The notes under the pieces were generated by a model, which was given only the letters and a program-made list of their open reading frames with translations, made no database searches and was not told where the DNA came from. DNA of 33,188 nucleotides from a virus: UHGV virus genome UHGV-0218401; one strand, written 5' to 3'. A program made the translations under genes and the position numbers. Position 1 is the first letter of the stretch, and each line of letters begins with the position of its first letter. This document shows, piece by piece, positions 82 through 28,783 of this stretch.

Positions 82-193
82 AACTGAAGTTGCCCTGAAA
101 ATGAAATTTTTTTGCACAACCGCAGAACTTTTCCGCAGGGCATCAGTCTTAATTAGTGCCACTGCTTTTCTTTGATGTCCCCATTTTGTGGAG

Positions 194-236
194 CCCATCA
201 ACCCCGCCATTTCGGTTCAAGGTTGATGGGTTTTTT
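194..236 (+). terminator. Rho-independent terminator (10-bp stem cccatcaacc/ggttgatggg followed by TTTTTT)
   Basis: Perfect 10-bp inverted repeat at 194-203 and 221-230 with a 17-nt loop, immediately followed by a T6 run at 231-236, downstream of the partial plus-strand gene. Confidence 0.5.
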
Positions 237-297
237 GTTGCCTGATTTTTATGCCGTTTAAAATCATGATGTTAGAAGCATTGCTTTTTAATGATGG

Positions 298-1156: not shown

Positions 1157-1298
1157 ATTTTAACTGCAAATAGTTGAAGGCCATGTTAAGAACGCCGATG
1201 ACCGCACCGACTAACATGACAAACGCAGTTGCGCATTTGAGCATAGCGGTGATCAGTTCAACACGCGCCTTAACTAAGCCAAGTTCGTTTGTATCCAT
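1119..1298 (-). CDS. Small single-pass membrane protein (59 aa from the second ATG), overlapping the RT start
   Basis: The ORF track gives 1119..1313; the second ATG at 1298 is preceded by GGAGGA. One hydrophobic helix (ATAFVMLVGAVIGVLNMAF). 3' end overlaps the RT start by 38 nt, suggesting co-transcription. Confidence 0.4.
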   Translation of the reverse strand: MDTNELGLVKARVELITAMLKCATAFVMLVGAVIGVLNMAFNYLQLKYDVRTPKMEAQI

Positions 1299-1559
1299 AA
1301 CTTGTTCCTCCATAGATACCTGACGTCTCTTAGCGCAAGCGCATGGCCCTAACTAAATAAAAAATAACAACCAGTAAGCCCAGAAAGCTTAACAAGTCGG
1401 CGCCCGATTACATGGCAATCAGGTAATCGGTCCGCAGTCGCAAAGCGACAAACTACATATCTACGGAGTGGGGATAAATCCCCGCTAACGTCAGGCATTA
1501 TTAATTTAACCTCAACTTATGGAAAAGTATAGTTTTAAATCATGTAGTTATGTAGCGGT

Positions 1560-1868: not shown

Positions 1869-2969
1869 TCATTCCATTTCGAAATCATCAATCTTCACTT
1901 CAAGCTCCAGACTGGTCGTAAAACCGTTATCCTGGCTGACGGTATGTGTCAGGGTGGTAATGGTCCATTCCGCATCATCTATCGGCTGTTTAAAGCCACT
2001 GACTTTCACTGGCATTTCCGTGTAGAGATCTGCCCGCCCTTCCGCCAGTTGTAGCGAGAATGCCGCAACACCGCGTTGCAGACGTTCCCACTGCATTTTC
2101 GCCGCTCGTTCGGCGTTGCTCCGGTTGGCATAAGTGCGATTAAGTACCAGCACGTTTTCATCCGTACCCACCAGGTAATCGCCCTGCTTCGCTTCTGGCT
2201 CTTTCTTCTGCTTCTTAGTTCTGCGCTTACGCTTCACCGTGGTGCTTTCTTTCTTCGCGGGTTCGCGGGTATGCAACCAGCTGGCAATTACGCCCGTGTA
2301 GGCTCCGCGATCTGCCAGGGTAAAGCGGTGACTGTCGCCGTCCTTGCGTGTGATAGTGATCACCGGCAGTGGTTTACCAGTGGCGCTTTTGCCCTGTCCC
2401 TGCCGGATGAATAACAGATTGCCATTTTTCACCGACGCGATGGCACCGTACTGGCGCGCCAGCCGCATCAGAAAACTGCCGTCACTCTCATTAGTCTGGT
2501 CTATATGCTCCACGGGCTTATCCGACAGGTCTTTACCCAGTGCCATCTTCAGCTTGTGACGCGCGGCTATTTCCTTCACCACTTCCCCGACAGTGGTCTT
2601 GTGCCACGATTTTTCACGGCGGGTATTCAGCGTTTCCCTAAAATCAGCACTTCGCGCCCGGATAGTCAGGCGATCCGGTGCGCCAGTGTGTTCAATCTCG
2701 TCCACCGTGAATGCCCCTTTCGGGAAAAGCGGCTGCCCCTTCCAGCCCAGCGCCAGCGTGATGACCGCACCACGGCGCGGCAGCACGATTTTTCCGTCGG
2801 CGTCGTCCAGTTCCAGATCAAGCTGGTCTGCTTCAAAGCCCCGATTGTCCGTCAGCGTCAGACTCATCAGGCGGTTATCCAGCACAGTGGTGATATCCTT
2901 TCCCTCAATACTGATGCTGAATGCGGGAGTTTTGTTGCCTTTGTTAAGCAGTTCAGAGCTGAAATTCAC
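1869..2969 (-). CDS. D: Tail protein D (P2 gpD-like)
   Basis: 366-aa ORF at the P2 gpD position (last gene of the FI-FII-E-T-U-D operon, before ogr); GTG start overlaps the U stop (GTGA). Confidence 0.85.
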   Translation of the reverse strand: MNFSSELLNKGNKTPAFSISIEGKDITTVLDNRLMSLTLTDNRGFEADQLDLELDDADGKIVLPRRGAVITLALGWKGQPLFPKGAFTVDEIEHTGAPDRLTIRARSADFRETLNTRREKSWHKTTVGEVVKEIAARHKLKMALGKDLSDKPVEHIDQTNESDGSFLMRLARQYGAIASVKNGNLLFIRQGQGKSATGKPLPVITITRKDGDSHRFTLADRGAYTGVIASWLHTREPAKKESTTVKRKRRTKKQKKEPEAKQGDYLVGTDENVLVLNRTYANRSNAERAAKMQWERLQRGVAAFSLQLAEGRADLYTEMPVKVSGFKQPIDDAEWTITTLTHTVSQDNGFTTSLELEVKIDDFEME

Positions 2970-3451
2970 GACAGCAGCCCTCCCACCGTTTTACTGATAT
3001 CGCTTAAGGCAGACGTTGCCGTATCCTGCAAATTATTCAGCTGCGCACTGAGATCACCGAACATATCGGACAGGGATTCATCCACCCGTTTGAGCGACAG
3101 CGTGAACTCAATCCGGCGCGGCATACCATCGCGGAAAAACTCCGTTTTAGTCTGATTCAGCCCCTCAATCACATAAATGCCGTAAATCGTGCCGCTGCCT
3201 TCAATCAGGGGCCATGCTTTTCCCTGTTCTGCCATCTGCTCCAGAGCCAGCAACGACAGCCTGCCGCCCGTTATCTCCGGCATAAGAACACCAGAAAGCG
3301 TCAGCATGTCGTTGTCCGGTCCCAGAAACTGCATGGACGGACGTCGGTTGACCCGGCTGTTTGCCGCATGTCGCCAGCTGCGTTGATACTGCAGTTCCTG
3401 ATACGGCACAGTGCGCAGCATAAACACGTACAATCCCAGCACCATCATCAT
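2966..3451 (-). CDS. U: Tail protein U (P2 gpU-like)
   Basis: 161 aa; ATG overlaps the T stop (ATGA); position between T and D as in P2. Confidence 0.85.
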   Translation of the reverse strand: MMMVLGLYVFMLRTVPYQELQYQRSWRHAANSRVNRRPSMQFLGPDNDMLTLSGVLMPEITGGRLSLLALEQMAEQGKAWPLIEGSGTIYGIYVIEGLNQTKTEFFRDGMPRRIEFTLSLKRVDESLSDMFGDLSAQLNNLQDTATSALSDISKTVGGLLS

Positions 3452-6400
3452 GCGTCGTATCCCCCCTGATCGCTGTAGTTACTCCTGGCTTTTGCCTTCA
3501 GCCTGCGTTCACGTTCATCAAGCTGGCGGGCCACCTCCCGCGCAATATCCTGCGCACTTTGTCCTGGCTGCGTCTGAATGATGATCTGCGTCGGTGCCTC
3601 AATCCGTTGAACGGGCGGCACAGTGGCTGCACGACTCACCATCGCTTCGCCGCCTTTCGAGGGAAGTGCCAAAGGATGCAACGGTGGAAGCTCTGCAGGC
3701 GCGGCAGCAACGCCCATCATTCCGGCAACAACGGCAGCCAGTGAAGCTGTATTTCTCCGGCTGGTCACATTTGCCGGGCCGTTAACAATTTCCGGCCCGT
3801 TTTCACCGACGATGCCAAACTGCCCGCGCGGGATATAGCCGCCGCTGTCATACATCCCCGCAAAGCCATATCCCCATGACGGAAAACCACCCGATGGCAT
3901 CATCACTTTACCGTCTGCATTCACCGTCGCAGGTTGCTGACGCGTCACGCTTTCCGGCAGTTTCGCCTTTGCGGCCTCTTTACTGACAATGCCGAGTTTT
4001 TCCAGCAACCAGGATACGCCGGATTTCAGGGAGTCCAGCGGATGCATGACCATATTCAGCCCTTCCGCCAGCGCCTCCCCGAATCGTCGCCCCATTGCCG
4101 CTGCGCTCTGCAGTTCGGCAGAAGTCGACTTAACGGGCGTCAGCAAATCAGTAAACCAGCCCCACAGCGCCTGCACTTTGTCGCCAATCCACTGGAACAC
4201 AGGCTTAAGCGGTTCGAATGCGGCACTGATGGGTCCTGCCGCCGCTTTGAATCCTTCCACCACGCCACCGAGAAATGCGGTGATGGGTTGCCAGTATTTC
4301 CAGACAACCAGCGCCACGCCCGCCAGTGCAGTAACCACAAGACCTATCGGACTGAGCAGAGCACCTAACAGACCAGATACGGCATACAGGGCAACGCGCA
4401 GCATCGCCAGTGGACCAGATGCCAGTACTCGCAGCACCGTGCCTGCGGCGGCCAGTCCACCGCGCAGTACCGCCAGAGGATTCATAAACATCACAGCAGC
4501 AGCACGTAAACCGGATAATCCAGACCGGAACAGTGCAACCGGCGCACCTGCTACAGTTTTCAGGACATTCCCCGTCAGTGATGCCGTGCGACGCAAAGAC
4601 GACAACGGAGCAGTAAGTAAACCCGCTGCGTTGCCCGATGAAGCAAGCCCGCGTCGCAGCAGTGCCAGTGGAGCGCCAGCTAACCAGGACAACGCGCTGC
4701 TGGTTCGTGTTACTGCTGCGGTAACGGAAGGTAACGTTTTGATACCCAGCACAGAGAATCCCAGACGGATGACTGCCAGCGGCCCCAGCACTGCAGCCAG
4801 CGCCACCGCTAAGGTGCCGAGGCCTACGGTAACCGCAGCCACAACAGCCGCTACTTTCATCAGTGTGCCTGTCAGTTCCGGGTTAGCTTCCACCCAGCGG
4901 CGCAACGCCCCCGTGATGCTTTTCACCGTGTACAGAATATCCATCAGCGGCTGGCGCAGCGTTTCGCCCAGGCTGCTGAAGGTGTTCTGCGCTCCGGTTT
5001 TGACCAGCAACCACTGAGCAGAAAGTGAGTCTTTGTTGATGTCGGATTCTTTCTGCATGGAACCGAGCGCATCATTGCCCGCTGTCAGTTTTAGCTGGCG
5101 CTGCAGTTCCGGAAGGTTGTTTGCCAGTTTCGCCGCGTCATCACCAAACTCTTTACCAAACAACATGGTCATGGCAGACAGACGCTTGTCCTGCGGCAGT
5201 GCGTTCACCTTCTCCAGCACACGCTGGATAGTTCCCATCGCATCCTTCGTCATCTGCTTTTCAATCACTTCAGGATTGAGTTTCAGCAGATTCATCCCTT
5301 CAAAGAAACTCTTGCTTTGCATGGTGGCAATGGACAATTCACGCACCATCGCGTTTGCTGCACTGGCTGCAACCTCCGGTGCAGCGCCCAGTGTCAGGAA
5401 GGTGGAACCCAGCGCCGCCGCTTTACGATAATCCAGACGGTCAGCCACACCGCCCAGACGCTGCATCACATCAATGATGTCCGCCCCTTTCGACATGGCG
5501 TTATCATCCAGAAAGTTCAGCGCATCACCGAGCTGTTCAATATTGCGGGTTGGTATTTTGTAGAGCTGGGCGATTTTCCCCAGACTTTCTGACAGTTCAT
5601 CCGCTGGCAGCTCAAAGGCTGTTGCCGCTTTTGCTGCCGTACTGGCGAAGGCCAGCAGGTCACGTTTCTGGTCCTCCCAGCTGTCGTCAGGGTTTGCCAC
5701 ATTCATGCGCGCACCACCTTCAACCAGTGCGGCGAAGTCCACAGCACCGTTTTCCATTGGCAGCTGTTCACTGGCAGCTTTGATGGCATCCTGCATTTCG
5801 TAAAAACGCGCAGTGCGGTTGCCATTATCGTCACGCAGACCATTGACCTGCTTTGCCACACCTTTCATGGCATCTTCCATGCTGGTATAGCTTTTTACCG
5901 CCGCCATCACTGGCGCGCCCATTGCCAGCCCTGCAGCCGTGGTGGTGGCTCCGGCTCCTGCGATGCGATCGCGCACTTCAAGCCGTCTTGAGTATTGTTC
6001 TCTGGCAACGTTCATCCGTGCCTGTTGTTCACCCAGACGTTTAAGTGCTTTTTGCTGGCCCTCCAGTGCCTGACGAGTTTCTTCGGCATTTTTCTTAAGT
6101 TCTCGCTGGGCACTACTGAGTTGTCTGGTATCAATCCCTGATTCTTTAAGTGCCTGACGTTGTCTCTGGACCGCCCCCAACAAGCCGTTATAGGTCTGCT
6201 GAAGTTCCTGTACTCGTGTTTTGGCCTGACTGAATAACTTTGCTTGCGCGGCGGTTGGCCTGTTAGTGGCAGCAAATTGTGTGGCGAGTTTTGCCGCCTC
6301 TTCGCGGGCTGTGTTCAGGTTGTTGGCTGTTATGGCTAGTTGCGAGCGCGTCTTGCGAAATTCATCAATTCTGCCAGCCTGCTTATTCAGTTCTTTGAGG

Positions 6401-6525
6401 CTGTTTCGGGTATTCTGAATTGCGCCAGCCAGCTCTTTCGAACTGGCCTGTGCAGCACGGAATGGGCGGGTGAGTTTGTCAACCGCATTAAGAATGACCT
6501 GCAGGCGCAGGTTATTATCACTCAT
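3448..6525 (-). CDS. T: Tail tape measure protein (P2 gpT-like)
   Basis: 1025-aa ORF with an N-terminal coiled-coil-like region, central hydrophobic and Ala/Gly-rich repeats and a C-terminal domain; lies directly downstream of E/E' as in P2. Confidence 0.9.
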   Translation of the reverse strand: MSDNNLRLQVILNAVDKLTRPFRAAQASSKELAGAIQNTRNSLKELNKQAGRIDEFRKTRSQLAITANNLNTAREEAAKLATQFAATNRPTAAQAKLFSQAKTRVQELQQTYNGLLGAVQRQRQALKESGIDTRQLSSAQRELKKNAEETRQALEGQQKALKRLGEQQARMNVAREQYSRRLEVRDRIAGAGATTTAAGLAMGAPVMAAVKSYTSMEDAMKGVAKQVNGLRDDNGNRTARFYEMQDAIKAASEQLPMENGAVDFAALVEGGARMNVANPDDSWEDQKRDLLAFASTAAKAATAFELPADELSESLGKIAQLYKIPTRNIEQLGDALNFLDDNAMSKGADIIDVMQRLGGVADRLDYRKAAALGSTFLTLGAAPEVAASAANAMVRELSIATMQSKSFFEGMNLLKLNPEVIEKQMTKDAMGTIQRVLEKVNALPQDKRLSAMTMLFGKEFGDDAAKLANNLPELQRQLKLTAGNDALGSMQKESDINKDSLSAQWLLVKTGAQNTFSSLGETLRQPLMDILYTVKSITGALRRWVEANPELTGTLMKVAAVVAAVTVGLGTLAVALAAVLGPLAVIRLGFSVLGIKTLPSVTAAVTRTSSALSWLAGAPLALLRRGLASSGNAAGLLTAPLSSLRRTASLTGNVLKTVAGAPVALFRSGLSGLRAAAVMFMNPLAVLRGGLAAAGTVLRVLASGPLAMLRVALYAVSGLLGALLSPIGLVVTALAGVALVVWKYWQPITAFLGGVVEGFKAAAGPISAAFEPLKPVFQWIGDKVQALWGWFTDLLTPVKSTSAELQSAAAMGRRFGEALAEGLNMVMHPLDSLKSGVSWLLEKLGIVSKEAAKAKLPESVTRQQPATVNADGKVMMPSGGFPSWGYGFAGMYDSGGYIPRGQFGIVGENGPEIVNGPANVTSRRNTASLAAVVAGMMGVAAAPAELPPLHPLALPSKGGEAMVSRAATVPPVQRIEAPTQIIIQTQPGQSAQDIAREVARQLDERERRLKAKARSNYSDQGGYDA

Positions 6526-7008: not shown

Positions 7009-7524
7009 TCAGAGGCCGAGGGCGTTGCGGTGCGCTTCCATCAGGTCCACACCGTCCACAATTTCCACCATGTTGATAAGGTCCACTTCATAGAGCACCT
7101 CACCATTTATAGTCAGCTTCGCGTAGCTGTTGGTACTGGTCACTTTGGTGGTGTTGCTTTCGCCCGTCTTCCACTCGCCGGAATCCACTTCTTTGTGACG
7201 TCCACGCACCACAAGCTCCACGGCCTGCACTTCCCCGGTATCGTCACGCTGGATAGAGCCGGTAAAGCGCAACTGGATACCATCCACCGTGGCTTTGCCC
7301 ATCTGCTTAAACAGCAGCAGTTCAGTACCACCAATGGAAAATTCCGTATCCAGTGCGCCGTCATCCAGCCCCAGATCCACATCCACTGCACCCGGCATTC
7401 CGCCGCCGCGATACTTCTCATATTTGCGGGTAAATTTCGGCAGCGTCAGCGACTCAACGATCCCCTGCCAGTTGTTCCCGTCATTAAACAGGTTCAGGTG
7501 TTTTAATTTGCGTGGTAAAGCCAT
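7009..7524 (-). CDS. FII: Tail tube protein (P2 gpFII-like)
   Basis: 171-aa ORF downstream of the sheath gene; ATG start; P2 order FI-FII-E. Confidence 0.9.
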   Translation of the reverse strand: MALPRKLKHLNLFNDGNNWQGIVESLTLPKFTRKYEKYRGGGMPGAVDVDLGLDDGALDTEFSIGGTELLLFKQMGKATVDGIQLRFTGSIQRDDTGEVQAVELVVRGRHKEVDSGEWKTGESNTTKVTSTNSYAKLTINGEVLYEVDLINMVEIVDGVDLMEAHRNALGL

Positions 7525-7533
7525 GTTGTCCCC

Positions 7534-8706
7534 TTACGCGCTGACCTGGCTGGAGAAATTCACCAGGTACTGATCGGTGATGCGCTGACGCAGCATCAGG
7601 TTTTCAAGTGGCGGCACTGGCGTGTAGTCGTAGTCGATGGTGAGTTTTCCGGCTTTCAGCGTGTCTTTGTCGTTCACCGACTCATCCAGCCAGCAATCAC
7701 CACCAATGAGATAGCCCTGACTGACCAGGCTGCGCATTTTGGCGCGGATACCCTCGATAATGTCGCGGGCCAGCGACGGATTCAGCGGTTTATCCACCGC
7801 CCACATGTGCGCTTCTGCCATCGTGTCCGTCAGCACCTGCGCCGTGCGGGTGTAGTTTTCGAAGGCAAAGAGCGGGTCATCACTCAGGCAGCGGGAACCC
7901 CAGAAGCGAAAACCGTCTTTGCGGATAAGGGTGGTGACGTCGTTCTGGTTCAGCAGTCCCGCATCGGTTGCCGGGTCCTGCAGATCCCAGAACACATCAG
8001 CAGAAATTCCGGTGACACCGTTAACGCCCACGTTGGACAGGCTTTTGTGCCATCCGGTCTGCTCGTCAATTTTGGCGCGCAGACCAAGCGCACGAGCGGT
8101 GGCATAAGCCGTTGCTTCGGCATTCAGCACCGTGTCCCAGCCAGTAAAGTCGGGCCAGATCAGCATTCCTTCACGCTGACTGAAGTTTTCACGGTAAGTG
8201 ATTGCTTCCTGCACCGTCTTGCAACCATACGCTGACAGGTAAGCAAATCCACGCAGGCTTTGCGCCACGCTCAGCAACTCAGTAGCTACCGCCTTCGTGT
8301 CGTGACCTGGCACGCCGAGAATGCGCGGTTTAACGCCGAGCTGTGACTGGGCAGATAACAGGGCTTTCATGCCTGTTTTTTTACCTTCAGCGGTCACTGC
8401 TCCGATGATATTGGTCGTGGTTTCTTCTTCCGTTTCACCCTGCGGCACACGCACAACAACGGTCACGGGTTTTGCCTGGTCAGCGATGGCATCCAGCGAA
8501 CGAGCCAGCGTGCCTGACTCACCCGCTTTACCGCTGGCAGTCAGCACATCAGTGATCAGCACGGGTTTATTAAGAGGAAACATTTTTGCATCGGCATCAT
8601 CGCCCGTGCAGACCATACCCACGATGGCGGTGCTCACCGTGGTAATGGATCGGGTGCCTTCGTTGACTTCAACAACGCGCACCCCGTGGTGGTAATCCTG
8701 AGCCAT
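7534..8706 (-). CDS. FI: Contractile tail sheath protein (P2 gpFI-like)
   Basis: 390-aa ORF, AGGAGG RBS upstream of the ATG; first gene of the F operon, with a late-promoter dyad upstream. Confidence 0.9.
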
Positions 8707-8782
8707 AGTGGCGAACCTCCTGATTGGATTAGGCTTCGCCCTATGTTGAAGTGATTGTGCCTGACAAACAGCTAAGCGCAGT

Positions 8783-8800
8783 TGTACCGTTATTCACACA
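8783..8800. promoter_or_regulatory. Ogr-dependent late promoter element (TGT-N12-ACA dyad) for the FI operon
   Basis: tgtACCGTTATTCACaca; dyad centre about 85 nt upstream of the FI start codon, consistent with an activator site at about -55 and a roughly 30-nt leader. Confidence 0.5.
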
Positions 8801-8848
8801 AAATGACGGTATTTGTCTGCTTTCAGGGATAATCAAAATAATGCTGAT

Positions 8849-9415
8849 TCAGGGGGATTCATTACTCTTATTTGCCGGAAATTTTCTATAAATTGTGGAA
8901 ACACCCACATCAAAAATCAGTGCAATACGCTGTCTTGATTCTCCGGCCTCGAGTAAGCGTCCAATCTGTGCCCACTGTTCGGTAGTCAACTTAGGACGGC
9001 GTCCACCTACTCTGCCTTTGGCGCGAGCTGCAGCAAGCCCCGCCCTGGTACGTTCAACTATCAGTTCGCGTTCCATTTCAGCCAGGGCACCCATGACATG
9101 AAAAAAGAAACGGCCCATTGGGGTACTGGTATCAATACTGTCAGTCAGGCTTCGGAAATTCACACCTCGCTGGCGCAACTCTTCTATCAACGTAACAAGA
9201 TGCCGCATACTGCGCCCCAACCTGTCCAGCTTCCAGACAACCAGCGTGTCTCCTGCCGATAGTGTCCTGAGCAGTTTTTTCAGCCCCGGTCTGTTGGACT
9301 TAGTGCCACTGATTTTGTCCTCAAAAATCCGCTCACATCCCGCGCAGTTCAGTGCATTACGTTGCAAATCGGTGTTCTGGTCATTTGTTGACACGCGTAC
9401 ATAGCCAATAAGCAT
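8849..9415 (-). CDS. Serine recombinase / DNA invertase of the Gin/Pin/Cin/Hin family
   Basis: Translation MLIGYVRVSTNDQNTDLQRNAL...VVWKLDRLGRSM...GRFFFHVMGALAEMERELI is near-identical in its motifs to Mu Gin / e14 Pin (catalytic Ser in YVRVST). ATG at 9415 chosen over the TTG the ORF track starts on. Adjacent to an invertible tail-fibre segment. Confidence 0.9.
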   Translation of the reverse strand: MLIGYVRVSTNDQNTDLQRNALNCAGCERIFEDKISGTKSNRPGLKKLLRTLSAGDTLVVWKLDRLGRSMRHLVTLIEELRQRGVNFRSLTDSIDTSTPMGRFFFHVMGALAEMERELIVERTRAGLAAARAKGRVGGRRPKLTTEQWAQIGRLLEAGESRQRIALIFDVGVSTIYRKFPANKSNESP

Positions 9416-9470
9416 GATCAATCCCCTGAATAAAAACCGGGGATGATGCCAGTTAGCCGTTATCTCTGCA

Positions 9471-9496
9471 TTTTCATAAACGTTGGTTTGGGAGAA
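9471..9496. repeat. Invertase crossover site (gix/hix-like, 26 bp), invertase-proximal end
   Basis: ttttcataaacgTTGGTTTGGGAGAA; its right half is identical to the reverse complement of the site at 10926-10951 and resembles hix/gix half-sites. Confidence 0.6.
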
Positions 9497-9826
9497 GCCA
9501 GATATGTCATTCAGCGAGGAGCTAATGTCAATGGAGCATGGATACGCTGGTCAGATGGTGCAATAGAAGTATTTGGAACTGGTGGTTCCAATGATAATGG
9601 GCTGGCTAAAGTCGTTTATCCAATTGCACTACCTAAGCTTTCACGTTTTATCAGCATAGCGGAAAGAATAAGAACAGATTACGAGGCCACACCTAATAAC
9701 GTTCACGTTTCAATGATCGTGGATGACCAGGTCAGTAATACAGGTTTTTATGTCCGCTGCCAGATGTACGACGGAAGACCATCAACAAGTGCTTTTTCCT
9801 GGAGAGTTTATTGTGCGCCTGTTTAA
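9497..9826 (+). CDS. Alternative (currently silent) tail-fibre variable C-terminal segment
   Basis: Plus-strand frame open through the crossover site and sharing the GLGEAR junction codons with H; no start or promoter of its own in this orientation; about 110 codons to TAA at 9824-9826. Confidence 0.45.
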   Translation, partial: ARYVIQRGANVNGAWIRWSDGAIEVFGTGGSNDNGLAKVVYPIALPKLSRFISIAERIRTDYEATPNNVHVSMIVDDQVSNTGFYVRCQMYDGRPSTSAFSWRVYCAPV

Positions 9827-10010
9827 TCCTGTTACTTTGACTGAAGTAATCCCCGGTCTTCATGACGTGACCGGGGCTGTGGAATTACCAGAAGATAACT
9901 GGTTTTTTACTGCATCTGAAATCCCTGAAGGAATGGAAATATCTGTTAACGAGAAGGGCGAACCCATTCTGATTGAGATTAAACCATCTCAGGTGGAACT
10001 GGCCAGATAA
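9813..10010 (+). CDS. Alternative tail-fibre assembly/chaperone protein (silent orientation)
   Basis: GTG start with GGAGAG RBS 6 nt upstream, overlapping the end of the alternative fibre segment; 65 aa; convergent with the active assembly gene, as U/U' in the Mu G segment. Confidence 0.4.
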   Translation: MRLFNPVTLTEVIPGLHDVTGAVELPEDNWFFTASEIPEGMEISVNEKGEPILIEIKPSQVELAR

Positions 10011-10245
10011 CCCCCGGCGCGGTGCTGGTATCTGCTTCCATCACCGCGTCGATATTACCAACATCATATTCAGTCATTTCCGGTTCCGGTGGTGCTATAA
10101 ACTCTCCGTCAGAATAGAACCAACCGACGCCTGCATCTATATGATCAACATTTATAATTTCGCAATTAGAGAATAAATCACCCTCTCCATCCCAGATAAT
10201 AATATTTTTCACCACGCCATGTTCAATCAGAGCAAAATTACTCAT
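9979..10245 (-). CDS. Tail-fibre assembly/chaperone protein (active orientation; gpG position)
   Basis: 88 aa; ATG overlaps the H stop (ATGA); C-terminus ...TSTAPGVIWPVPPEMV resembles the conserved C-terminal end of tail-fibre assembly proteins. Confidence 0.55.
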   Translation of the reverse strand: MSNFALIEHGVVKNIIIWDGEGDLFSNCEIINVDHIDAGVGWFYSDGEFIAPPEPEMTEYDVGNIDAVMEADTSTAPGVIWPVPPEMV

Positions 10246-11987
10246 CAGGCATACTCCTCAACAATAACTATTCCCGGGGCACCGTCACCTCCCGATTGAG
10301 CCTCACTTCCGGCAGGTGCGCAGGCTCCGCCTCCGCCAGCACCAAAGCCCTCAGCTTTACCACCACCACGTCCTCTGAATGATGAAGAACTTGCACCACC
10401 TATACCGCCTGAACCTAATGGTGTATCCCCCCCGGTACCACCTGCTACAGCTTTAACAGAGATAACCATTGCTCCTGGTGTTTTTGCACTACAGCGAAAT
10501 GCTCTTAGTACAGTGCCGGACGATGTCGGACTGGCACCCCATGAAATACCCTGAATATATGATGTGTTTGCAGATGCTCCCCCCGCGCCACCGCCTGTAC
10601 CACCAGGTGCAGTTATCATGGAACCGAAATAAGTTGTGCCACCTTCACTACCTGAATTTCTTCCGGCTCCCCCCCCTTTACCTGCAGCACCGATAATAAC
10701 GTTGACTTCGAAATCATTATCAACCTCGAAAAATGCTTCAATAAATGCGCCGCTCAATCCAGCTCCGGCTGTTGCCTGCTGATTTTCTGTTGTTTCAGGA
10801 ACCCCACCGCCGCCGCCGCCACCACCAGAGGCAATGACCCTTATCTTTTTTGTCCCTGGTGTTGGGATATATTTTCCAGAGCTTTTAAAAATATTCGTGT
10901 TTAACAAACGACCAGAGAATCTGGCTTCTCCCAAACCAAGGTATGCGAGAAGACCAGTTACATCCTTTCCACTCAAATTAGTCAACGTATTGTCCAGCGG
11001 TTGTTTACCTGCCAGCGCATTAAGCATTGTCGTGGCAAAGTTCGGATCATTCCCCAGTGCCGCCGCCAGTTCGTTCAGTGTATCCAGTGCCGCAGGTGCA
11101 GAACCCACCATTGCTGCAATCGCTGATTTCACAAAAGCCGTAGTGGCAATCTGTGTATTGTTGACCGACTGCGCCGCCGTGGGGGCTGTTGGCGTTCCGG
11201 TGAGTACCGGACTCGACAGCGGCGCTTTCAGTGCCAGCGCATTGTTAATGGTGGTACTGAATTTCGGATCATTGTTAATGGCTACGGCTATTTCTTTCAG
11301 CGTGTCCAGCGTGGCTGGCGCACCATTAATAAGAGCCGTCAGTGCCGCCTGAACAAATGCTGTGGTCGCAAGCTGCGTGGTATTATTCCCCGCCGCTGGC
11401 GTTGGCGCTTTGGGGGTTCCGGTAAACGTCGGACTTTCTTTGGGTGCATACTGTGAATGCGGGTCCGGTGCGGCAAGATGTTTTGCCATCAGGTCATCCA
11501 CGTACACCTTCAACTCCAGTGCTTTGTCATCCACATACTTGCGGGTTGCCAGCACTACAGCAGGGTCGATTTTCAGGGTGATATTGTCCGTGCTGCTGGT
11601 TATCAGCACCATGCGCACGGTCTGGGTGCGCCCGCTGCCTTCAGCCAGTTGCGGCTTATAGCTTTCCGGGCAGTTGCCCACGGCAATCAATGCCCCGGAC
11701 TCATCAAACAGGCCCACTTCACGGATCCACCAACCGCCCTCGTTTTCAGGGATCACCTGTTCGGCAATAATCTGGCTGCTGTTCTGCGGGTCGATATAGA
11801 GCATATTCAGCGCAGCCCGGCGTTTCTCATTTACCAGTGCAGTCTGCTTTGCGTCCGGCGTTGGCAATCTTCCGCCGCCATCGCCGACCGCCATATGGGT
11901 AATTTTTAACGGCACACCGAGCGCGGCGGCGCTGGCAAGTTTCGCCGCGCCAATATCCGTCAGCAGGGTATAAAATTTTGTGCTCAT
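10245..11987 (-). CDS. H: Tail fibre protein (P2 gpH-like): constant N-terminal part plus invertible Gly-rich C-terminal part
   Basis: 580 aa; ATG overlaps the I stop; two tandem tail-fibre repeat units of about 60 aa (ATTAFV...); crossover site at codons 346-354; C-terminal 225 aa is Gly-rich (run of 8 Gly). Confidence 0.85.
   Translation of the reverse strand: MSTKFYTLLTDIGAAKLASAAALGVPLKITHMAVGDGGGRLPTPDAKQTALVNEKRRAALNMLYIDPQNSSQIIAEQVIPENEGGWWIREVGLFDESGALIAVGNCPESYKPQLAEGSGRTQTVRMVLITSSTDNITLKIDPAVVLATRKYVDDKALELKVYVDDLMAKHLAAPDPHSQYAPKESPTFTGTPKAPTPAAGNNTTQLATTAFVQAALTALINGAPATLDTLKEIAVAINNDPKFSTTINNALALKAPLSSPVLTGTPTAPTAAQSVNNTQIATTAFVKSAIAAMVGSAPAALDTLNELAAALGNDPNFATTMLNALAGKQPLDNTLTNLSGKDVTGLLAYLGLGEARFSGRLLNTNIFKSSGKYIPTPGTKKIRVIASGGGGGGGGVPETTENQQATAGAGLSGAFIEAFFEVDNDFEVNVIIGAAGKGGGAGRNSGSEGGTTYFGSMITAPGGTGGGAGGASANTSYIQGISWGASPTSSGTVLRAFRCSAKTPGAMVISVKAVAGGTGGDTPLGSGGIGGASSSSFRGRGGGKAEGFGAGGGGACAPAGSEAQSGGDGAPGIVIVEEYA
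10926..10951. repeat. Invertase crossover site (26 bp) inside tail-fibre gene H
   Basis: TTCTCCCAAACCAAggtatgcgagaa; inverted relative to 9471-9496 with 14 bp identical; lies in H codons for LGLGEAR at the constant/variable junction. Confidence 0.6.
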
Positions 11988-12589
11988 GGATTCACTCTCA
12001 TTGTGTCAATAACATGGACCGCCCCGCCTTCATGCACGGTGCCGCCAGAAATAATTGTTTCGTTGATATACGGATAGATCGTGATTTCTTCGCCAAGATA
12101 GCTTGCAGCCCCCACCCAATGCGGACCGCTGGTCTGCAGATTGATGGACATGCCGATCATGTGACGGCTACATGGTTTGGCATCGCTTATCAGCCGCTCA
12201 AGTTCCAGATAGGTATCTTCAGTGATGCCCTGGTCCTGCACGCCGATATCCAGGCGAAACGTGCCCGGTGTTTCTCCGGTCTGCCACCACTCAATAATGC
12301 GGATCAGGAATCCGAACGGTTCCACCACCCGCCGCACGGCACTGGTGGTTCCTTTATGCTGATGAATATAAAAAGCATCCTTCACTACCTGGCGTTTGAC
12401 GCTTTCTGTCCAGCCCTCGTCCCAGCGATCCACAGAGAACGCCCAGGCGAGATAAGGCAGGAAGCTGACCGGACAGGTAGCCGGATTCCACAAATCACGA
12501 AGCGGCACCTGCAGATCAGAAATCCCGCTGCAGGTTTGCGCCAGTCGGCGCTCCAGTGGTGTTGAACCCGGTGGCAGCAGACTATTCAT
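11984..12589 (-). CDS. I: Baseplate assembly protein (P2 gpI-like)
   Basis: 201 aa; GGAGGA RBS; overlaps J stop and H start; P2 order J-I-H. Confidence 0.8.
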   Translation of the reverse strand: MNSLLPPGSTPLERRLAQTCSGISDLQVPLRDLWNPATCPVSFLPYLAWAFSVDRWDEGWTESVKRQVVKDAFYIHQHKGTTSAVRRVVEPFGFLIRIIEWWQTGETPGTFRLDIGVQDQGITEDTYLELERLISDAKPCSRHMIGMSINLQTSGPHWVGAASYLGEEITIYPYINETIISGGTVHEGGAVHVIDTMRVNP

Positions 12590-17032: not shown

Positions 17033-17545
17033 TCAGTTTGCTCCCTGTAAACACCAGGCCATCTCCCGCGCACGGCGGTTATCCAGCCCCTGATTAAAAA
17101 CACCTTTCACATAAACCCAGCGCGGCAACTGTCGGCACGCATCTGCCCAGCGCCGCTGATTGAGTAAATTCACCAGCGTGGAACTGCAGGCATTGCCCGT
17201 TCCCACGTTGAAGGCAAACGACACCGCAGCGTCATACACCTTCTGCGGCGGCTGTTGCTTCACACACCTTTCCAGCGCCCGCTCGACACGCAGCACGTTG
17301 GAGATCAGCCCTTCTGCTGCCTGTCGCTCCGTAATGGTTTTGCCGGGAATGACGCCTGACGTATTACCAATGCCGTCGGTCCAGACACCCGCGCTGCACT
17401 GATACGGCTGCAGACGACAACCTTCGTAATCGGCAATCAGTTTCAGCCCCTCCACGGAGGTGTGAAGCTGCTGAAAACCCGGCAGCGTGGCAGCAATAGC
17501 CAGCACGGCCCCGACAAGGCAGCGTTTAACGATTGATGGATTCAT
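17033..17545 (-). CDS. K: Endolysin (lysozyme-like, P2 gpK position), possibly with an N-terminal signal-anchor
   Basis: 170 aa; GGGAGGA RBS; N-terminal hydrophobic segment (CLVGAVLAIAATLPGF) followed by an E...D...T catalytic arrangement typical of T4-lysozyme-like (GH24) enzymes. Confidence 0.85.
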   Translation of the reverse strand: MNPSIVKRCLVGAVLAIAATLPGFQQLHTSVEGLKLIADYEGCRLQPYQCSAGVWTDGIGNTSGVIPGKTITERQAAEGLISNVLRVERALERCVKQQPPQKVYDAAVSFAFNVGTGNACSSTLVNLLNQRRWADACRQLPRWVYVKGVFNQGLDNRRAREMAWCLQGAN

Positions 17546-17741
17546 AGTCCTCCCGCGAGATCTGCCCGTCGCGCAGAAGCTGGTAGGCTTTGTGTTTGTA
17601 GTACCAGTTGATAGCCAGCATCAGCACACCAATCATCAGGCCGCCCAGCGTTGAGGCATCCTTGATGGACAAATCGCCCAGCCAGGCCAGCACGACGGCG
17701 ATGCAATACGTGATAAAGGCGCTGATTCGCTCAAGCGTCAT
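17526..17741 (-). CDS. Y: Holin (P2 gpY position)
   Basis: 71 aa, two hydrophobic helices and a charged C-terminus; directly upstream of the endolysin with overlap. Confidence 0.7.
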   Translation of the reverse strand: MTLERISAFITYCIAVVLAWLGDLSIKDASTLGGLMIGVLMLAINWYYKHKAYQLLRDGQISREDYESINR

Positions 17742-17744
17742 AAT

Positions 17745-17948
17745 TCAGTCCCATAGCTGGACGGTCTGCACGGTGGTGGTGGTCGGAATGTCCGGCAGCT
17801 CCACCTGCAGCCCGTGAGGTAAAAAGGGGCCGTATTCGGCAAGCCCCGGATTTGCCTTCAGTACCTGCTCCGTGACACCCTGCGTGCGCCCGTAATGACG
17901 CCAGCAAAGCGCGTCCACCGTGTCATACTGATGCGCACGCACTTTCAT
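17745..17948 (-). CDS. X: Tail protein X (P2 gpX-like)
   Basis: 67 aa; ATG with GGAG RBS; position between L and the holin as in P2. Confidence 0.8.
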   Translation of the reverse strand: MKVRAHQYDTVDALCWRHYGRTQGVTEQVLKANPGLAEYGPFLPHGLQVELPDIPTTTTVQTVQLWD

Positions 17949-18412
17949 CAGATAAGCTCCACTGTGCAGTGCGGCGCATCCTGCACCCGGCTGATGGCCC
18001 AGCGGGCGTCACGCCACAAATCACCGCTGGCTTCTGCCAGTTCTTCGCCTCGCTTCACACCGGATGCCGTGGCGTCATAGTCCTGGTATCGTTCGTTGAG
18101 CATGGCGCGTGCCCAGCAGTAAACCGCATTGAAATAGTGCTGAATGCGCTCACTTTTGCCGTCCAGCTGCTCCGCCGGAACCTCTGCCAGCGAGGCATAT
18201 CCCAGCATCTGCTGGCGTCTGCGAAACTCATACAGCTCTGCGTTGACCTCCGAAATTGCCGACAGCGCAACCTGCTTTAAACGCGGCTGCGTCACCGTGC
18301 CGTCAGTGCGCATGACACTGCGAAACTCCGACAGGTCCACATCAGGCCAGAACGGCGTGTTTCTGATGATTTCCGCCTGTTCCGGTGCCTGTTCTGGCGC
18401 AACAAACTTCAT
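17948..18412 (-). CDS. L: Head completion protein L (P2 gpL-like)
   Basis: Start refined to the ATG at 18412 (MKFVAPEQ...) with AGGAGA RBS; the conserved C-terminal part resembles P2 gpL as recalled (NAELYE, LWRD..RWA). Confidence 0.8.
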   Translation of the reverse strand: MKFVAPEQAPEQAEIIRNTPFWPDVDLSEFRSVMRTDGTVTQPRLKQVALSAISEVNAELYEFRRRQQMLGYASLAEVPAEQLDGKSERIQHYFNAVYCWARAMLNERYQDYDATASGVKRGEELAEASGDLWRDARWAISRVQDAPHCTVELI

Positions 18413-18507
18413 GCTGCTTTCTCCTGAAATAGAGGGCGGTGGACGGGGTTTTGATGTGGCTGTGCCTTTCGCCACCCCGTGCCGCCCGTGCGCGGGGGCA
18501 CGTTCTG

Positions 18508-19158
18508 TCAGCGGCTGTCATTGCGCAGTCTGCGCTCCAGCTGCTGTTTGTCTTTTTTCACGCCACAGCGGGGATCGAGCTGTAACGCATGGTTGAGATG
18601 ATTAAGGGCGGAAGCCGGATTGCTTTCACTCAGGACAGCGCCAATCGCTTTATGCAGACGCGCCCGTGACTGGTCCGGCATATCCAGACCGTCTGTCAGC
18701 TCCAGCGTCTGCAACAACAGATCGGCATCAAAGCCGGTGGCGGCAAGCATTGCGCTCTGCGCGGCGTCTGCCATTTCCTCTGCCAGCACGGTCTGCACGT
18801 TGCGGTTACCCAGCGGCATCACCCAGCCATGACGCAGGGCATGACGCCCGATCTCCAGCGCCCCGGCATAATCTCCGGCATCAATGCGCCACAGCATCAC
18901 GTACATCAGCACGTCATCCTGTTGAGCGCCTCCGGCAGCCAGGACCCCCTCTGCCCAGGCGGCGTACTTCGGCAGCAGCTCCACCTTGATTTCCGCTTTT
19001 TTGACCGTGGACTGAACGCCCTTGAGACGGCGGCGGTCTTCCGCCAGTTGCAGCAGCATCAGGTCATAGCCTGATGCGTGGCGAACACTGCCGCCCTCGC
19101 GGGCGGCCTGTTCAGCCTGAACGCGCAGGCGATGCTGCCGTGCGGGACTCAGGCTCAT
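18508..19158 (-). CDS. M: Terminase small/endonuclease subunit (P2 gpM-like)
   Basis: 216 aa; GGAG RBS; position between N and L as in P2. Confidence 0.75.
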   Translation of the reverse strand: MSLSPARQHRLRVQAEQAAREGGSVRHASGYDLMLLQLAEDRRRLKGVQSTVKKAEIKVELLPKYAAWAEGVLAAGGAQQDDVLMYVMLWRIDAGDYAGALEIGRHALRHGWVMPLGNRNVQTVLAEEMADAAQSAMLAATGFDADLLLQTLELTDGLDMPDQSRARLHKAIGAVLSESNPASALNHLNHALQLDPRCGVKKDKQQLERRLRNDSR

Positions 19159-19161
19159 GGA

Positions 19162-20220
19162 TTACGCTCCGGTTTCGGCTGCGGCGGCGCTGAAATCACC
19201 AATCTGGATGTTTTCCACCAGTGCGGCGCAGCGGTAGTCCTCAACCACATAGGCTTCATTAACGGATTCAAAGTTTTCAATCCGGTCACGTTTCGGGTTG
19301 TCGATAACTGAACGGCGGCGGGTATCTTCCTGCCAGTAGATGGACAGGTTATCCAGACGGGTGATCAGCAGCGCATTCGCCGGGAAGAACGGCGCACGCA
19401 CGGCCTGCAGGCCACCCATGCGCTTCTGACTGATGATCATATCGGCAGCCAGTTTTTCACTGTTTTCCTGCTCTTTGTTGACCAGCGGGAAATACTTGTC
19501 AGACAGCAGTTCACGCCCGCAAATCACCACCAGATCGTCATCGTCCTGGTAGACAACGTCGATAAGCTCATTGACGGCATCCATCACCACGGCGTCCAGG
19601 TTGGCATATTCGCCACCTTTCCCGACTTTCACCGCACCCGGTGTGGTTTCACCGCCCGTGGTGGTGCTGCCCATGACGTGATCCGGTGCATCCTCACGGA
19701 TTTTCTGCAGCCAGCCTTTGTTCACATCCTGCAGCAGCGGGTTTTCGCTACGGTTGGAGGTTTTCGCACGCTTCACGCCGTTAAAGCCGATCATGATGCG
19801 GTCCAGTGCCTGACGTTTCACGATGGCGTTACGGATACGCACCTGGAAATCCTGAAACTTCGCCCACAGGTCCAGCTTCGCGTAGGTCAGCACCGTGTCA
19901 AAGTTGGTCTGCTCGCATTTATATTCCACATCGACCATCAGCGTCGGATCGACAGGCTCACGCTCTTTCGCGGTGGTATCAGTGGTTCCGGCAATGGTGC
20001 TGCCAACACCCAATCCAAGCAGCTGACCGGACTGCTCAGTCACTGGCGTGACGTTAATCAGCGTCAGGAAAGCGGCGGACTGCTGGATCTGGTCTTCCAG
20101 CGTCTGCTGTACAGACGGCTCTACGGTGAATTTGCTGGACAGTTCTTCAACTGCCACACCGTTCAGACGCGCCAGCTGCTGCAGGTAAGCGTTAAAAGCA
20201 AAGCGGGTATTCTTCTTCAT
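19162..20220 (-). CDS. N: Major capsid protein (P2 gpN-like)
   Basis: 352 aa at the P2 gpN position, similar in length to P2 gpN (357 aa). Confidence 0.9.
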   Translation of the reverse strand: MKKNTRFAFNAYLQQLARLNGVAVEELSSKFTVEPSVQQTLEDQIQQSAAFLTLINVTPVTEQSGQLLGLGVGSTIAGTTDTTAKEREPVDPTLMVDVEYKCEQTNFDTVLTYAKLDLWAKFQDFQVRIRNAIVKRQALDRIMIGFNGVKRAKTSNRSENPLLQDVNKGWLQKIREDAPDHVMGSTTTGGETTPGAVKVGKGGEYANLDAVVMDAVNELIDVVYQDDDDLVVICGRELLSDKYFPLVNKEQENSEKLAADMIISQKRMGGLQAVRAPFFPANALLITRLDNLSIYWQEDTRRRSVIDNPKRDRIENFESVNEAYVVEDYRCAALVENIQIGDFSAAAAETGA

Positions 20221-20236
20221 CAGGTTTTGTGCTCCA

Positions 20237-25947: not shown

Positions 25948-26037
25948 TATTCCTCCCGTCATACTTAACAGCTTTTAGATAATATGACATTACATGTTAG
26001 ATTTCATCCGTTTTGTGAACATATCCACTGCCGCGCG

Positions 26038-28610: not shown

Positions 28611-28783
28611 AAGAAGCAATTGAAACCATTTAGTAAAAATTGAAAGCTATCACCACATTAATGCATGGCATATACATTTGTGGACGAAAACAAGTATTCT
28701 GATTATAACCCAAGTGAAAATCTCAAGTGTCGTAACTTTCACTCGGTTGTTTTCAGTTTCGAAAAACTACTGGGAAGATCCAT

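Follow-up and report, generated by a model that had tools for sequence, protein, structure and literature searches.

A probable Pin/Gin-type inversion switch for the tail-fibre tip of an Escherichia coli P2-like prophage

A short segment of the tail-fibre operon of an E. coli P2-like prophage is found exactly inverted, in nature and within a laboratory lineage, between two crossover sites that flank it. We studied this segment in UHGV virus genome UHGV-0218401, in a window of 33,188 nucleotides (the window is the whole stretch of DNA that was analysed, and all positions refer to it). We consider it very likely that the locus is an inversion switch of the Pin/Gin/Cin/Hin family, in which a serine invertase exchanges one fibre tip and its small partner gene for another. 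The features on which this reading rests are listed below in the order of their positions.

8849-9415, minus strand: DNA invertase, a Pin/Gin/Fin-type small serine recombinase of 188 aa, with its ATG at 9415
9331-9394, minus strand: putative recombinational (Fis) enhancer at the 5' end of the invertase gene (gene nucleotides 22-85)
9471-9496, plus strand: invertase-proximal, pix-like crossover site, TTTTCATAAACG-TT-GGTTTGGGAGAA, with the central TT at 9483-9484
9482-9826, plus strand: alternative fibre C-terminus, an in-frame continuation of 107 aa after ...GLGEAR, silent in the present orientation
9813-10010, plus strand: 65-aa partner of the alternative tip; it starts at a GTG with an overlap of 14 nt with the stop of the tip, and GGAGAG lies upstream
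9979-10245, minus strand: 88-aa partner of the glycine-rich tip, a cut-down Tfa-like protein whose ATG overlaps the H stop (TGATG)
10245-11987, minus strand: tail-fibre gene H, 580 aa in the present orientation
10245-10925, minus strand: variable part of H, at present a glycine-rich tip of 224 aa (26% glycine)
10926-10951, minus strand: crossover site within H, read on the minus strand as TTCTCGCATACC-TT-GGTTTGGGAGAA and coding for part of ...LLAYLGLGE...
10952-11987, minus strand: constant N-terminal part of H (Pfam Phage_tail_fib, 3.7e-65, residues 1-150)

An inverting segment at the Z/fun position

The prophage that carries the locus appears to be complete, with genes for tail, lysis, head, terminase, portal and replication. 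Pfam finds Tail_P2_I, Phage_tail_fib, Phage_sheath_1, Phage_GPD, Phage_GPA, terminase and portal in P2 order, and the flanks are 95-97% identical in DNA to Peduoviridae phages. On one side of the locus lies FI, the sheath gene (7534-8706), and on the other the fibre genes. The late genes of P2 run V-W-J-I-H-(G)-[hotspot]-FI-FII-E-T-U-D. The P2 record gives the order G - fun(Z) - FI, and together with the gene order here it confirms the initial annotation in placing this variable locus at the position of Z/fun in P2. According to a survey of hotspots, the one at Z/fun often holds an invertase (bioRxiv 10.1101/2024.10.15.618418). Sequencing and PCR have documented inversion with coexisting orientations in P2-like prophages of EPEC (PMC4272514). 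Salmonella LT2 and LT7 differ in the orientation of the Fels-2 fibre gene, and the adjacent fin, a homologue of pin, is proposed by the authors to have mediated the inversion (PMC7953296). An invertible fibre segment with an invertase at Z/fun in P2-like prophages is thus already in the literature, from Fels-2 and EPEC.

That the segment inverts had been predicted from the window alone, and deposited genomes bear this out with exact inversion between the two sites. Among complete E. coli genomes, the full-length 3.4-kb locus occurs in the orientation of the window in 15 records and in the computed flipped form, again at full length, in nine. Both orientations occur among relatives that are 99.9% identical. 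In strain HZDC01, whose copy of this prophage is 99.8-99.9% identical, the stretch 9483-10942 is exactly inverted and the flanks on either side remain colinear. UC4316 and UC4315, each deposited as 'mutant of UC4224', come from a lineage whose copy is 97% identical to the window locus, and their sole difference is a 1460-bp inversion; the flanks are 100% identical over 15.8 and 16.2 kb, and the outer half-sites stay put.

These genomes bear on whether the segment could be a frozen relic in the window's own strain, its invertase unexpressed or its outer half-sites poor substrates. A single window makes one orientation visible, and the outer half-sites of its two crossover sites differ at 5 of 12 positions, a divergence that is normal for this family of invertase sites. 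However, relatives identical to it at 99.9% occur in both orientations and the copy identical at 97% has flipped in a laboratory lineage, and we regard a relic as highly improbable.

The two orientations in the databases might also have arisen by RecA-mediated exchange at the 33-bp repeats around the segment, or by assembly error, rather than by site-specific recombination. The exchange point can be localised no finer than a stretch of 21 nt over which the two sites are identical (TTGGTTTGGGAGAAGCCAGAT), and in strain 214-4 two copies of the locus, of opposite orientation, stand about 35 kb apart, where an assembly artefact is possible. An identity of 21 nt is, however, very short as a substrate for homologous recombination. 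Each orientation is seen repeatedly among 24 independent complete assemblies, most of them long-read, the sites have an exact 12-2-12 pix/gix architecture beside an intact invertase, and PCR-verified flipping has been published for P2-like prophages (PMC4272514). Taken with this evidence, exchange by RecA or misassembly is extremely unlikely.

Crossover sites, invertase and candidate enhancer

A repeat finder recovered 9471-9503 and 10919-10951 as the arms of an inverted repeat of 33 nt, 85% complementary, with 1415 nt between them. Within these arms lie the two 26-bp sites, each with two imperfect 12-bp half-sites around a 2-bp core, in inverted orientation and with the core dinucleotide shared. 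Oriented alike they are equal at 21 of 26 positions, and their inner halves are identical, both reading ...-TT-GGTTTGGGAGAA. The pair of inverted 26-bp sites with identical right halves that the initial annotation described is therefore present, and it is the sole pair in the window: a 19-nt site pattern allowing up to three mismatches matched only these two sites in the 33 kb and matched 0 of 100 shuffles. The same scan found no third, shufflon-like site in the 33-kb window, unlike one EPEC prophage, which has three repeats and four variants. One site does fall inside H, at the codons for LGLGEAR as had been claimed (residues 350-356 of the 580-aa protein).

Aligned with known sites of the family, as had been proposed, both show the 12-2-12 layout of hix, gix and pix. 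The reverse complement of the proximal site, TTCTCCCAAACCAACGTTTATGAAAA, equals the e14 site that precedes pinE, and the site within H corresponds to the one that e14 has in ycfK/stfP (AAACCTTGGTTTGGGAGAAGG). From the centre of the proximal site to the invertase ATG is 68 bp, compared to 67 bp in Mu and e14, and the 68 bp from the proximal site to the start codon closely resemble the e14 pix/pinE leader.

The Gin/Pin-type invertase reported to adjoin the segment is indeed there as an intact ORF of 188 aa, a size within the ~185-195 aa of the family, its ORF start 50 bp from the left crossover site. It matches Pfam Resolvase (2.9e-53, residues 5-137) and HTH_7 (1.5e-15, residues 140-183) as well as the DNA invertases of PHROG 125 (1.4e-101), and it is 87% identical to e14 PinE and 75% identical to Mu Gin. 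The catalytic Ser9 is kept in a YVRVST motif, and MLIGYVRVSTNDQ is the same in this invertase, Gin and PinE. An NCBIfam search with the invertase returned only sub-threshold matches, to other serine recombinases. Judged by its sequence, the protein is a member of the Gin/Hin/Pin/Cin family, and this particular enzyme probably catalyses the inversion. The ORF list starts the gene two codons earlier, at a TTG at 9421.

Flipping could instead be carried out mainly in trans by Pin-family invertases of the host (e14 PinE, Qin PinQ, Rac PinR, or those of other P2-like or Mu-like prophages), with the local gene redundant or silent. Identity of the proximal site with e14 pix would allow this, and there is cross-action within the family, PinQ of Qin inverting the e14 P segment (PMC12529663). 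The 3.4-kb query, which spans the invertase gene, has at least a partial match in about half of complete E. coli genomes. A consensus scan for promoters and terminators across 8600-11100 gave counts at or near shuffle expectation and no convincing invertase promoter. Yet the local ORF is intact and adjoins the segment in all 24 full-length relatives, and conservation with e14 extends over the leader from site to gene. We judge flipping mainly in trans to be unlikely; it would alter which enzyme works and not the identity of the element.

A search for a Fis-bound enhancer in the 5' part of the invertase gene had been suggested. There, two 15-mers of the form G-N13-C occur at nucleotides 22-36 (GTGTCAACAAATGAC) and 71-85 (GCGCGGGATGTGAGC), about 90-150 bp from the centre of the crossover site, and Mu gin, e14 pinE and phage S164 have G-N13-C 15-mers at the same aligned positions. 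In Hin, the Fis sites are separated by sequence with two A/T-rich tracts, ATTTA and TAATG (PMC3798978). Between the 15-mers here, TAATG is present as in Hin, and ATTTG stands in place of ATTTA. A strict Fis-consensus scan of the invertase 5' region gave no match, and its matches in Mu gin were off the expected spacing, which makes the scan uninformative. Synonymous-site conservation in the enhancer-aligned codons 7-30 showed no excess over the rest of the gene (p = 0.70, 0.34 and 0.06 in three pairs). The search thus yielded aligned 15-mers, and neither a strict Fis match nor synonymous constraint. Systems of the Gin/Hin/Pin/Cin family have an enhancer with two Fis sites about 100 bp from the nearest crossover site, and they depend on Fis and on negative supercoiling. 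By its relatives, inversion here may depend on Fis and the candidate enhancer.

Two fibre tips and their small partner proteins

Phages Cartapus, KP12 and 500465-1 have the constant part of H at 95-97% DNA identity and bear other cassettes. In the present orientation this part of H continues into the glycine-rich tip, which matches Gly_rich_2 (PF21722; Pam3 gp24-like) above the Pfam gathering score and whose fold comes out as TNF-like plus a glycine-rich lattice. Inversion joins the alternative tip to H in frame, giving a 463-aa H, and the frame is kept across the junction both ways. This upholds the proposal that two alternative C-termini lie in opposite orientations and that inversion swaps the Gly-rich one for one of about 110 aa, the two being 224 and 107 aa long. 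In flipped genomes the alternative tip forms the C-terminal end of an annotated 463-aa 'phage tail protein'. The tip matches PHROG 2557, a virion structural protein (4e-15), and weakly Pfam Gp53-like_C (0.0064). PDB sequence searches gave no significant match for the alternative tip and none by sequence for the glycine-rich tip, NCBIfam gave no family match for the fibre, the tips or the partner proteins, and single-sequence AlphaFold2 returned an unusable model of the alternative tip (pLDDT 39.6). Going by Mu and P1, the two tips would switch receptor specificity. Host-range change by alternation of the Mu segment is established knowledge.

In either orientation the silent cassette keeps an ORF with its own ATG, namely 9443-9826 (127 aa) in the window and a glycine-rich ORF of 243/244 aa in flipped genomes.

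The initial annotation gave each tip an assembly-protein gene of its own. For the 88-aa protein this description fits in part. Over residues 4-57 it shares 51% identity with the N-terminal part of phage Goslar gp089, a Caudo_TAP protein (E 1e-19) whose gene comes after a Gly_rich_2 fibre, and by hhalign its last 24 residues (64-87) fit the C-terminal motif of Tfa (90%, E 1.6e-6). It lacks the helical middle of canonical Tfa, the part for trimerisation, the central ~50 aa being absent relative to the Caudo_TAP protein. For the 65-aa protein hhalign detects no similarity to Tfa proteins (probability 0.6%); it is a member of a widespread family of 57-65 aa found across Enterobacterales in many genera, and otherwise gave a weak match to PHROG 188 (E 0.0039). 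Mu U, U' and Goslar gp089 do match the Pfam Caudo_TAP profile (PF02413), whereas the 88-aa and 65-aa ORFs have no Pfam match at E <= 0.01. PDB sequence searches with both small ORFs also gave no significant match. A word-indexed protein search with the 88-aa ORF returned near-identical E. coli proteins only; its informative relatives were obtained by tblastn against phages.

Both small ORFs were also considered as what is left of two convergent Tfa genes, once full-length and since truncated at the 3' end, and both readings were rejected. The family of the 65-aa ORF is naturally 57-65 aa long, with a version of 61 aa in S164, and comparison of the 88-aa ORF with Goslar gp089 reveals an internal gap rather than a truncation. 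Other short versions of the 88-aa-type partner exist, of 60 aa in Kp4865-2 and of 63 positions in PHROG 14370.

Goslar and Kp4865-2 carry the glycine-rich tip with its partner, and S164 carries a related alternative tip with its partner. Since these pairs recur in different phages, tip and partner appear to travel together. Both small proteins may act as helpers in fibre assembly.

A second and weaker possibility is a host-defence role of one orientation, like that of PinQ/StfE2. Inversion would then serve the host, one orientation yielding a protein derived from the fibre that would hide a receptor on the cell surface and so keep other phages out. PinQ and StfE2 of e14 provide a precedent in a nearly identical pix/Pin system (PMC12529663), and an ORF with its own ATG in each orientation of the silent cassette would fit it. 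However, no signal peptide was found in the orphan ORFs of the silent cassettes, and as the prophage looks complete, a role in phage host range is sufficient. That the inversion serves the host is improbable.

Proposed mechanism and relation to known switches

In the inversion switch that we favour, the 188-aa serine invertase would bind the two 26-bp sites as dimers and cut each at its TT/AA core, half of the synaptic tetramer would rotate, and religation would leave the 1.45-kb segment between 9484 and 10938 turned. Codons 1 to ~353 of H and the operon promoter would stay fixed, so that a single shaft would continue in frame into either tip, depending on the orientation, with the small partner gene that belongs to this tip directly downstream of H. 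The present orientation would yield the 580-aa H with its glycine-rich, Pam3-gp24-like tip and the 88-aa mini-Tfa, and the flipped orientation the 463-aa H with the 107-aa tip and the 65-aa protein. Given two fibre states, a lysogen population should release two kinds of virion that differ in adsorption specificity.

The closest known system is the P segment of e14 with PinE. Besides the 87% identical invertase, the identical proximal 26-bp site and a nearly identical leader, e14 has a second site that shares the AAACCTTGGTTTGGGAGAAG core and lies at the same LGLGE codons of its fibre gene. It also has the same layout of constant part, site, tip and partner, convergent partner and tip, site, and outward-reading invertase. 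However, e14 is a lambdoid remnant and a defective prophage, whereas the locus here sits in a complete P2-like prophage. Its partners TfaP and TfaE are canonical Caudo_TAP proteins, in contrast to the 88-aa and 65-aa partners, and its tips are unrelated to the glycine-rich and 107-aa tips. The segment is 1.45 kb here, compared to 1.8 kb in e14 and 3.0 kb in Mu.

The G segment of Mu with Gin (and the C segment of P1 with Cin) follows the same logic, a constant Sc fused to Sv or S'v and followed by U or U', and alternation of the Mu segment changes host range (PMC7953296). Gin is 75% identical to the invertase here, and the site layout and the 67-68 bp from site to start are shared. The half-sites of Mu gix differ in sequence (TTATCCAAAACC against TTCTCCCAAACC), its partners are full-length Caudo_TAP proteins of 175/177 aa, and the phage is Mu-like rather than P2-like.

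Fels-2 with fin and the P2-like prophages of EPEC E2348/69 agree with the present locus in phage family, in the position between fibre and sheath genes and in invertase family, and they too place alternative C-termini on one N-terminus (PMC7953296). Their cassette content is different, judged from published accounts. Pam3 pairs the glycine-rich fibre gp24 with gp25 and has no inversion switch. Its chaperone gp25 is 162 aa long with a helical trimerisation domain at 64-162, whereas of the C-terminal region of Tfa the 88-aa protein retains no more than the last ~24 residues.

As a switch, the locus adds nothing conceptually, Pin/Gin-type alternation of fibre tips having been textbook material since Mu, P1 and e14. 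Relative to the literature that we found, what is new may be the cargo only, a compact segment with two tips and their small partners. The locus also carries a warning for annotation: what is annotated as H and nearby "hypothetical proteins" represents two states of a single gene, and assemblies of strains with such a switch may be mixed. The modules of tip and partner are compact, naturally exchangeable receptor-binding cassettes, which might be used in retargeting P2-type phages or tailocins. If the locus has anything new to teach about fibre assembly, it would be through its small partner proteins alone. It is possible, if doubtful, that they are minimal helpers which replace canonical Tfa chaperones in an unusually compact switch, the 88-aa one with a fibre-binding N-domain and no trimerising helices; if both are sufficient assembly factors, they would represent new minimal classes of fibre chaperone.

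Position and architecture of the invertible locus

The window holds an almost complete E. coli P2-like prophage with a short host flank, and its late genes lie on the minus strand in P2 order.

Tail genes around the invertible locus (window positions)
1869-2969, minus strand, gene D
3448-6525, minus strand, tape measure
7009-7524, minus strand, tube
7534-8706, minus strand, sheath gene FI, with the invertible locus next
10245-11987, minus strand, tail-fibre gene H
11984-12589, minus strand, gene I, then J and further genes

Beyond these, lysis, head, terminase and portal genes and replication gene A are present. On either side of the locus the DNA is 95-97% identical to that of Peduoviridae phages (Cartapus, KP12 and 500465-1 among them); for two of these three, Cartapus and KP12, the records list at this place a DNA invertase together with two fibre-assembly genes. 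The locus lies between H and FI and the P2 record has fun(Z) between G and FI, bearing out its initial placement at the Z/fun position.

A repeat finder returned an inverted repeat (9471-9503 and 10919-10951) with 33-nt arms, 85% complementarity and a spacing of 1415 nt. It contains two 26-bp crossover sites, 9471-9496 and 10926-10951: the left reads TTTTCATAAACG-TT-GGTTTGGGAGAA and the right, on the opposite strand, TTCTCGCATACC-TT-GGTTTGGGAGAA, with the identical right halves described in the initial annotation. Allowing up to 3 mismatches, the 19-nt site pattern occurs at two places only in the 33 kb, both of them crossover sites, and in 0 of 100 shuffled sequences. The right site lies within H, at residues 350-356 (LGLGEAR), as first annotated. 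Downstream of it, H ends in a 224-aa tip that is 26% glycine, while on the plus strand past the left site ...GLGEAR stays in frame for 107 aa more, so that inversion would yield a 463-aa H. The two opposed C-termini proposed earlier are thus present, with the frame kept in the inverted form. A small ORF directly follows each tip: an 88-aa ORF whose ATG overlaps the H stop, and a 65-aa ORF whose GTG overlaps the end of the alternative tip. The invertase gene abuts the segment: 50 bp separate the start of its ORF from the left site, and it reads away from the segment.

The 188-aa invertase has Resolvase and HTH_7 domains (Pfam), hits the DNA-invertase family of PHROG (1e-101) and contains the catalytic serine motif MLIGYVRVSTNDQ; at 87% identity to e14 PinE and 75% to Mu Gin, it is of the Gin/Pin type, as had been claimed. 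Comparison with known sites, suggested in the initial annotation, showed that the invertase-proximal site TTCTCCCAAACCAACGTTTATGAAAA, read towards the gene, is identical to the one that precedes pinE of e14 in E. coli K-12; the leader that follows is closely similar. At its ends the e14 P segment has AAACCTTGGTTTGGGAGAAGG and CCTTCTCCCAAACCAACGTTT, with the same core as in the window; Mu has the same geometry but its own gix sequence. Site centre and start codon are 68 bp apart in the window and 67 bp apart in e14 as in Mu. By its site, core, leader and spacing, the locus is a pix/Pin-type inversion system in the strict sense.

Invertase genes of the Hin/Gin type contain, in their 5' part, a Fis-bound enhancer some 100 bp away from the nearest site (PMC3798978). 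The window gene contains two G-N13-C 15-mers (gene nt 22-36 and 71-85), both conserved at corresponding alignment positions in Mu gin, e14 pinE and phage S164. The Fis sites of the Hin enhancer presumably occupy the same codons. TAATG stands between the two 15-mers, as it does between the Fis sites of Hin (PMC3798978). A strict Fis-consensus scan and a synonymous-site test of the gene gave no support for an enhancer; by homology, the 5' part of the gene likely holds one.

Both orientations in E. coli genomes

The flipped sequence, computed with the central dinucleotides as exchange points, was used to search complete E. coli genomes. For a 900-nt probe over the predicted new H junction, three genomes gave 100.0% identity, and in 34 the match covered 80% or more of the probe. 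Of the records with the full-length 3.4-kb locus, 15 (H1-H15) have it in the window orientation and 9 (H96-H104) in the computed flipped form. Strain HZDC01 has flanks colinear with the window (99.8-99.9% identity) and an exact inversion of 9483-10942. The most telling pair is UC4316 and UC4315, each deposited as "mutant of UC4224": the sequences to either side (15,804 and 16,182 bp) are 100% identical, and the sole difference is an inverted 1460-bp middle. The outer half-sites are unchanged, and the exchange point resolves to a 21-nt identical stretch and no finer. The parent, UC4224, has the window orientation. This pair shows that a copy 97% identical to the element inverts within a laboratory time scale. 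The initial proposal that the segment inverts therefore holds.

RecA-mediated exchange or assembly artefacts are unlikely sources of the two orientations, given the crossover-site architecture, the intact invertase adjoining the segment and the 24 independent complete assemblies. That the segment is a frozen relic in the window strain is likewise unlikely, because near-identical relatives occur in both states. Catalysis in trans by other Pin-family enzymes is plausible, since the invertase-proximal site is identical to that of e14 and PinQ is reported to invert the e14 segment (PMC12529663), but it would alter only the identity of the enzyme.

Strain 214-4 (NZ_CP025840.1) has the 3.4-kb locus twice, at 5121139-5124539 and 17501-20901, one copy per orientation; each is 99.0% identical to the window, and the roughly 35 kb between them include the record origin of the circular chromosome. 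This is either a tandem double lysogen in both states or an assembler duplication of a mixed-orientation region. Among chicken isolates with genomes of identical length (5,067,659 bp), E. coli DG341-1 differs from DG342-2, DG343-1 and DG351-2 in the orientation of a related segment, which shares the alternative-tip cassette but pairs it with another second cassette, one containing a canonical Tfa, apparently a second case of flipping within a clone.

Tips and partner genes

The glycine-rich tip matches many viral glycine-rich proteins in BFVD, including the Goslar fibre, whose tip opens with the same LGL...GRLLN motif. In Pam3, this glycine-rich domain is the proposed receptor-binding end, held by a 162-aa chaperone whose N-terminal beta-sandwich (residues 1-55) binds the tip and whose C-terminal helical domain trimerises (PMC9608196). 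The 88-aa ORF had no match in a Pfam search. Over residues 4-57 it shares 51% identity with the N-terminus of the 138-aa Goslar gp089, a Caudo_TAP protein encoded after a Gly_rich_2 fibre. The final 24 residues of the 88-aa ORF (NIDAVMEADTSTAPGVIWPVPPEM) correspond to the conserved C-terminus of Tfa (hhalign 90%, E 1.6e-6), and its helical middle lacks about 50 residues. Klebsiella phage Kp4865-2 encodes a 60-aa version after a related tip. Together, these similarities indicate that the 88-aa ORF is a Tfa relative in reduced form, passed on with its tip. The equivalent segment of the P2-like Kp4865-2 (L006, about 3400-3750), which has the glycine-rich tip and 60-aa partner, carries an IS1-like ORF in place of the second cassette, so its switch appears disrupted.

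The alternative tip matches PHROG 2557 (4e-15) and, only weakly, Gp53-like_C; single-sequence structure modelling of it yielded no usable model. The 65-aa ORF belongs to a family of 57-65-aa proteins from Escherichia, Enterobacter, Salmonella, Yersinia, Cronobacter, Hafnia and others, one member of which occurs on 997 contigs. Phage S164 has the same 65-aa-type partner after a related tip, within its own invertible segment. Profile comparison of the 65-aa ORF with Tfa proteins was negative, and it is position that makes it a putative assembly protein. Of the claim that each tip has its own assembly-protein gene, the half concerning the 88-aa ORF, a putative assembly factor, has support from Tfa similarity; the 65-aa ORF has none of this kind. 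G+C is 43-44% in the alternative cassette and both partner genes against 50-55% in the flanks, which fits horizontally exchanged modules.

In either orientation, RefSeq annotates the silent cassette as a free-standing protein with its ATG in the invertase leader: a 126-127-aa 'hypothetical protein' in the window orientation (9443-9826, plus strand), and in flipped genomes (compared sequences L001, 1955-2689, and L010, 15744-16478) a 244-aa 'phage tail protein' or 'glycine-rich domain-containing protein'. A 243-aa protein cluster with 291 member sequences is probably the same product. These ORFs are most likely orphan gene halves, not proteins.

Other cargo and related fibre switches

An RybB sRNA gene (161-239, plus strand; Rfam, 105 bits) shows that the left ~380 bases are host chromosome and that the prophage sits in the ybjL/rybB attachment region, as in UC4316. 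Between this flank and ogr (1560-1811) lies a reverse transcriptase module, possibly of the Abi-P2 type that P2-like coliphages carry. The related UC4316 prophage lacks the module and has ybjL directly beside ogr, so the module is cargo specific to the strain, located at the end of the prophage. Between portal and gene A, the P2 old/tin hotspot holds a Septu-type defence pair (24045-25962, minus strand) and a second two-gene cargo (26437-28049, minus strand) matching PDC-M03, a candidate defence system.

Additional cargo (window positions)
386-1313, minus strand, module with a 256-aa reverse transcriptase (Pfam RVT_1 2e-18; PADLOC RT matches moderate)
1119-1313, minus strand, 64-aa hydrophobic ORF overlapping the reverse transcriptase
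24045-24716, minus strand, PtuB, HNH (PADLOC 1.8e-82)
24709-25962, minus strand, PtuA, AAA_21 (PADLOC 1.1e-121)
26437-27141, minus strand, HIRAN-domain protein adjoining the kinase (PADLOC PDC-M03B 1e-36)
27138-28049, minus strand, HipA_C-like kinase (PADLOC PDC-M03A 4e-36)
28065-28619, Rv2179c-like 3'-5' exoribonuclease, after the HipA_C-like/HIRAN pair

We found no description in the literature of this cassette pair with reduced partners. The observation in the initial annotation is confirmed and its interpretation supported, apart from the partner genes. By analogy with PinQ/StfE2, a role in host defence may be possible. In EPEC E2348/69, sequencing and PCR revealed coexisting orientations in two P2-like prophages, one with three repeats (PMC4272514). 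In Fels-2, a P2-like Salmonella prophage, a tail-fibre gene beside the pin homologue fin is inverted between LT2 and LT7, and fin was proposed as the mediator (PMC7953296). A survey of phage hotspots reported that the Z/fun hotspot of P2-like phages often encodes a DNA invertase with adjacent genes inverted (bioRxiv 10.1101/2024.10.15.618418). The Pin-type fibre switch at Z/fun of P2-like phages is already described in the literature.
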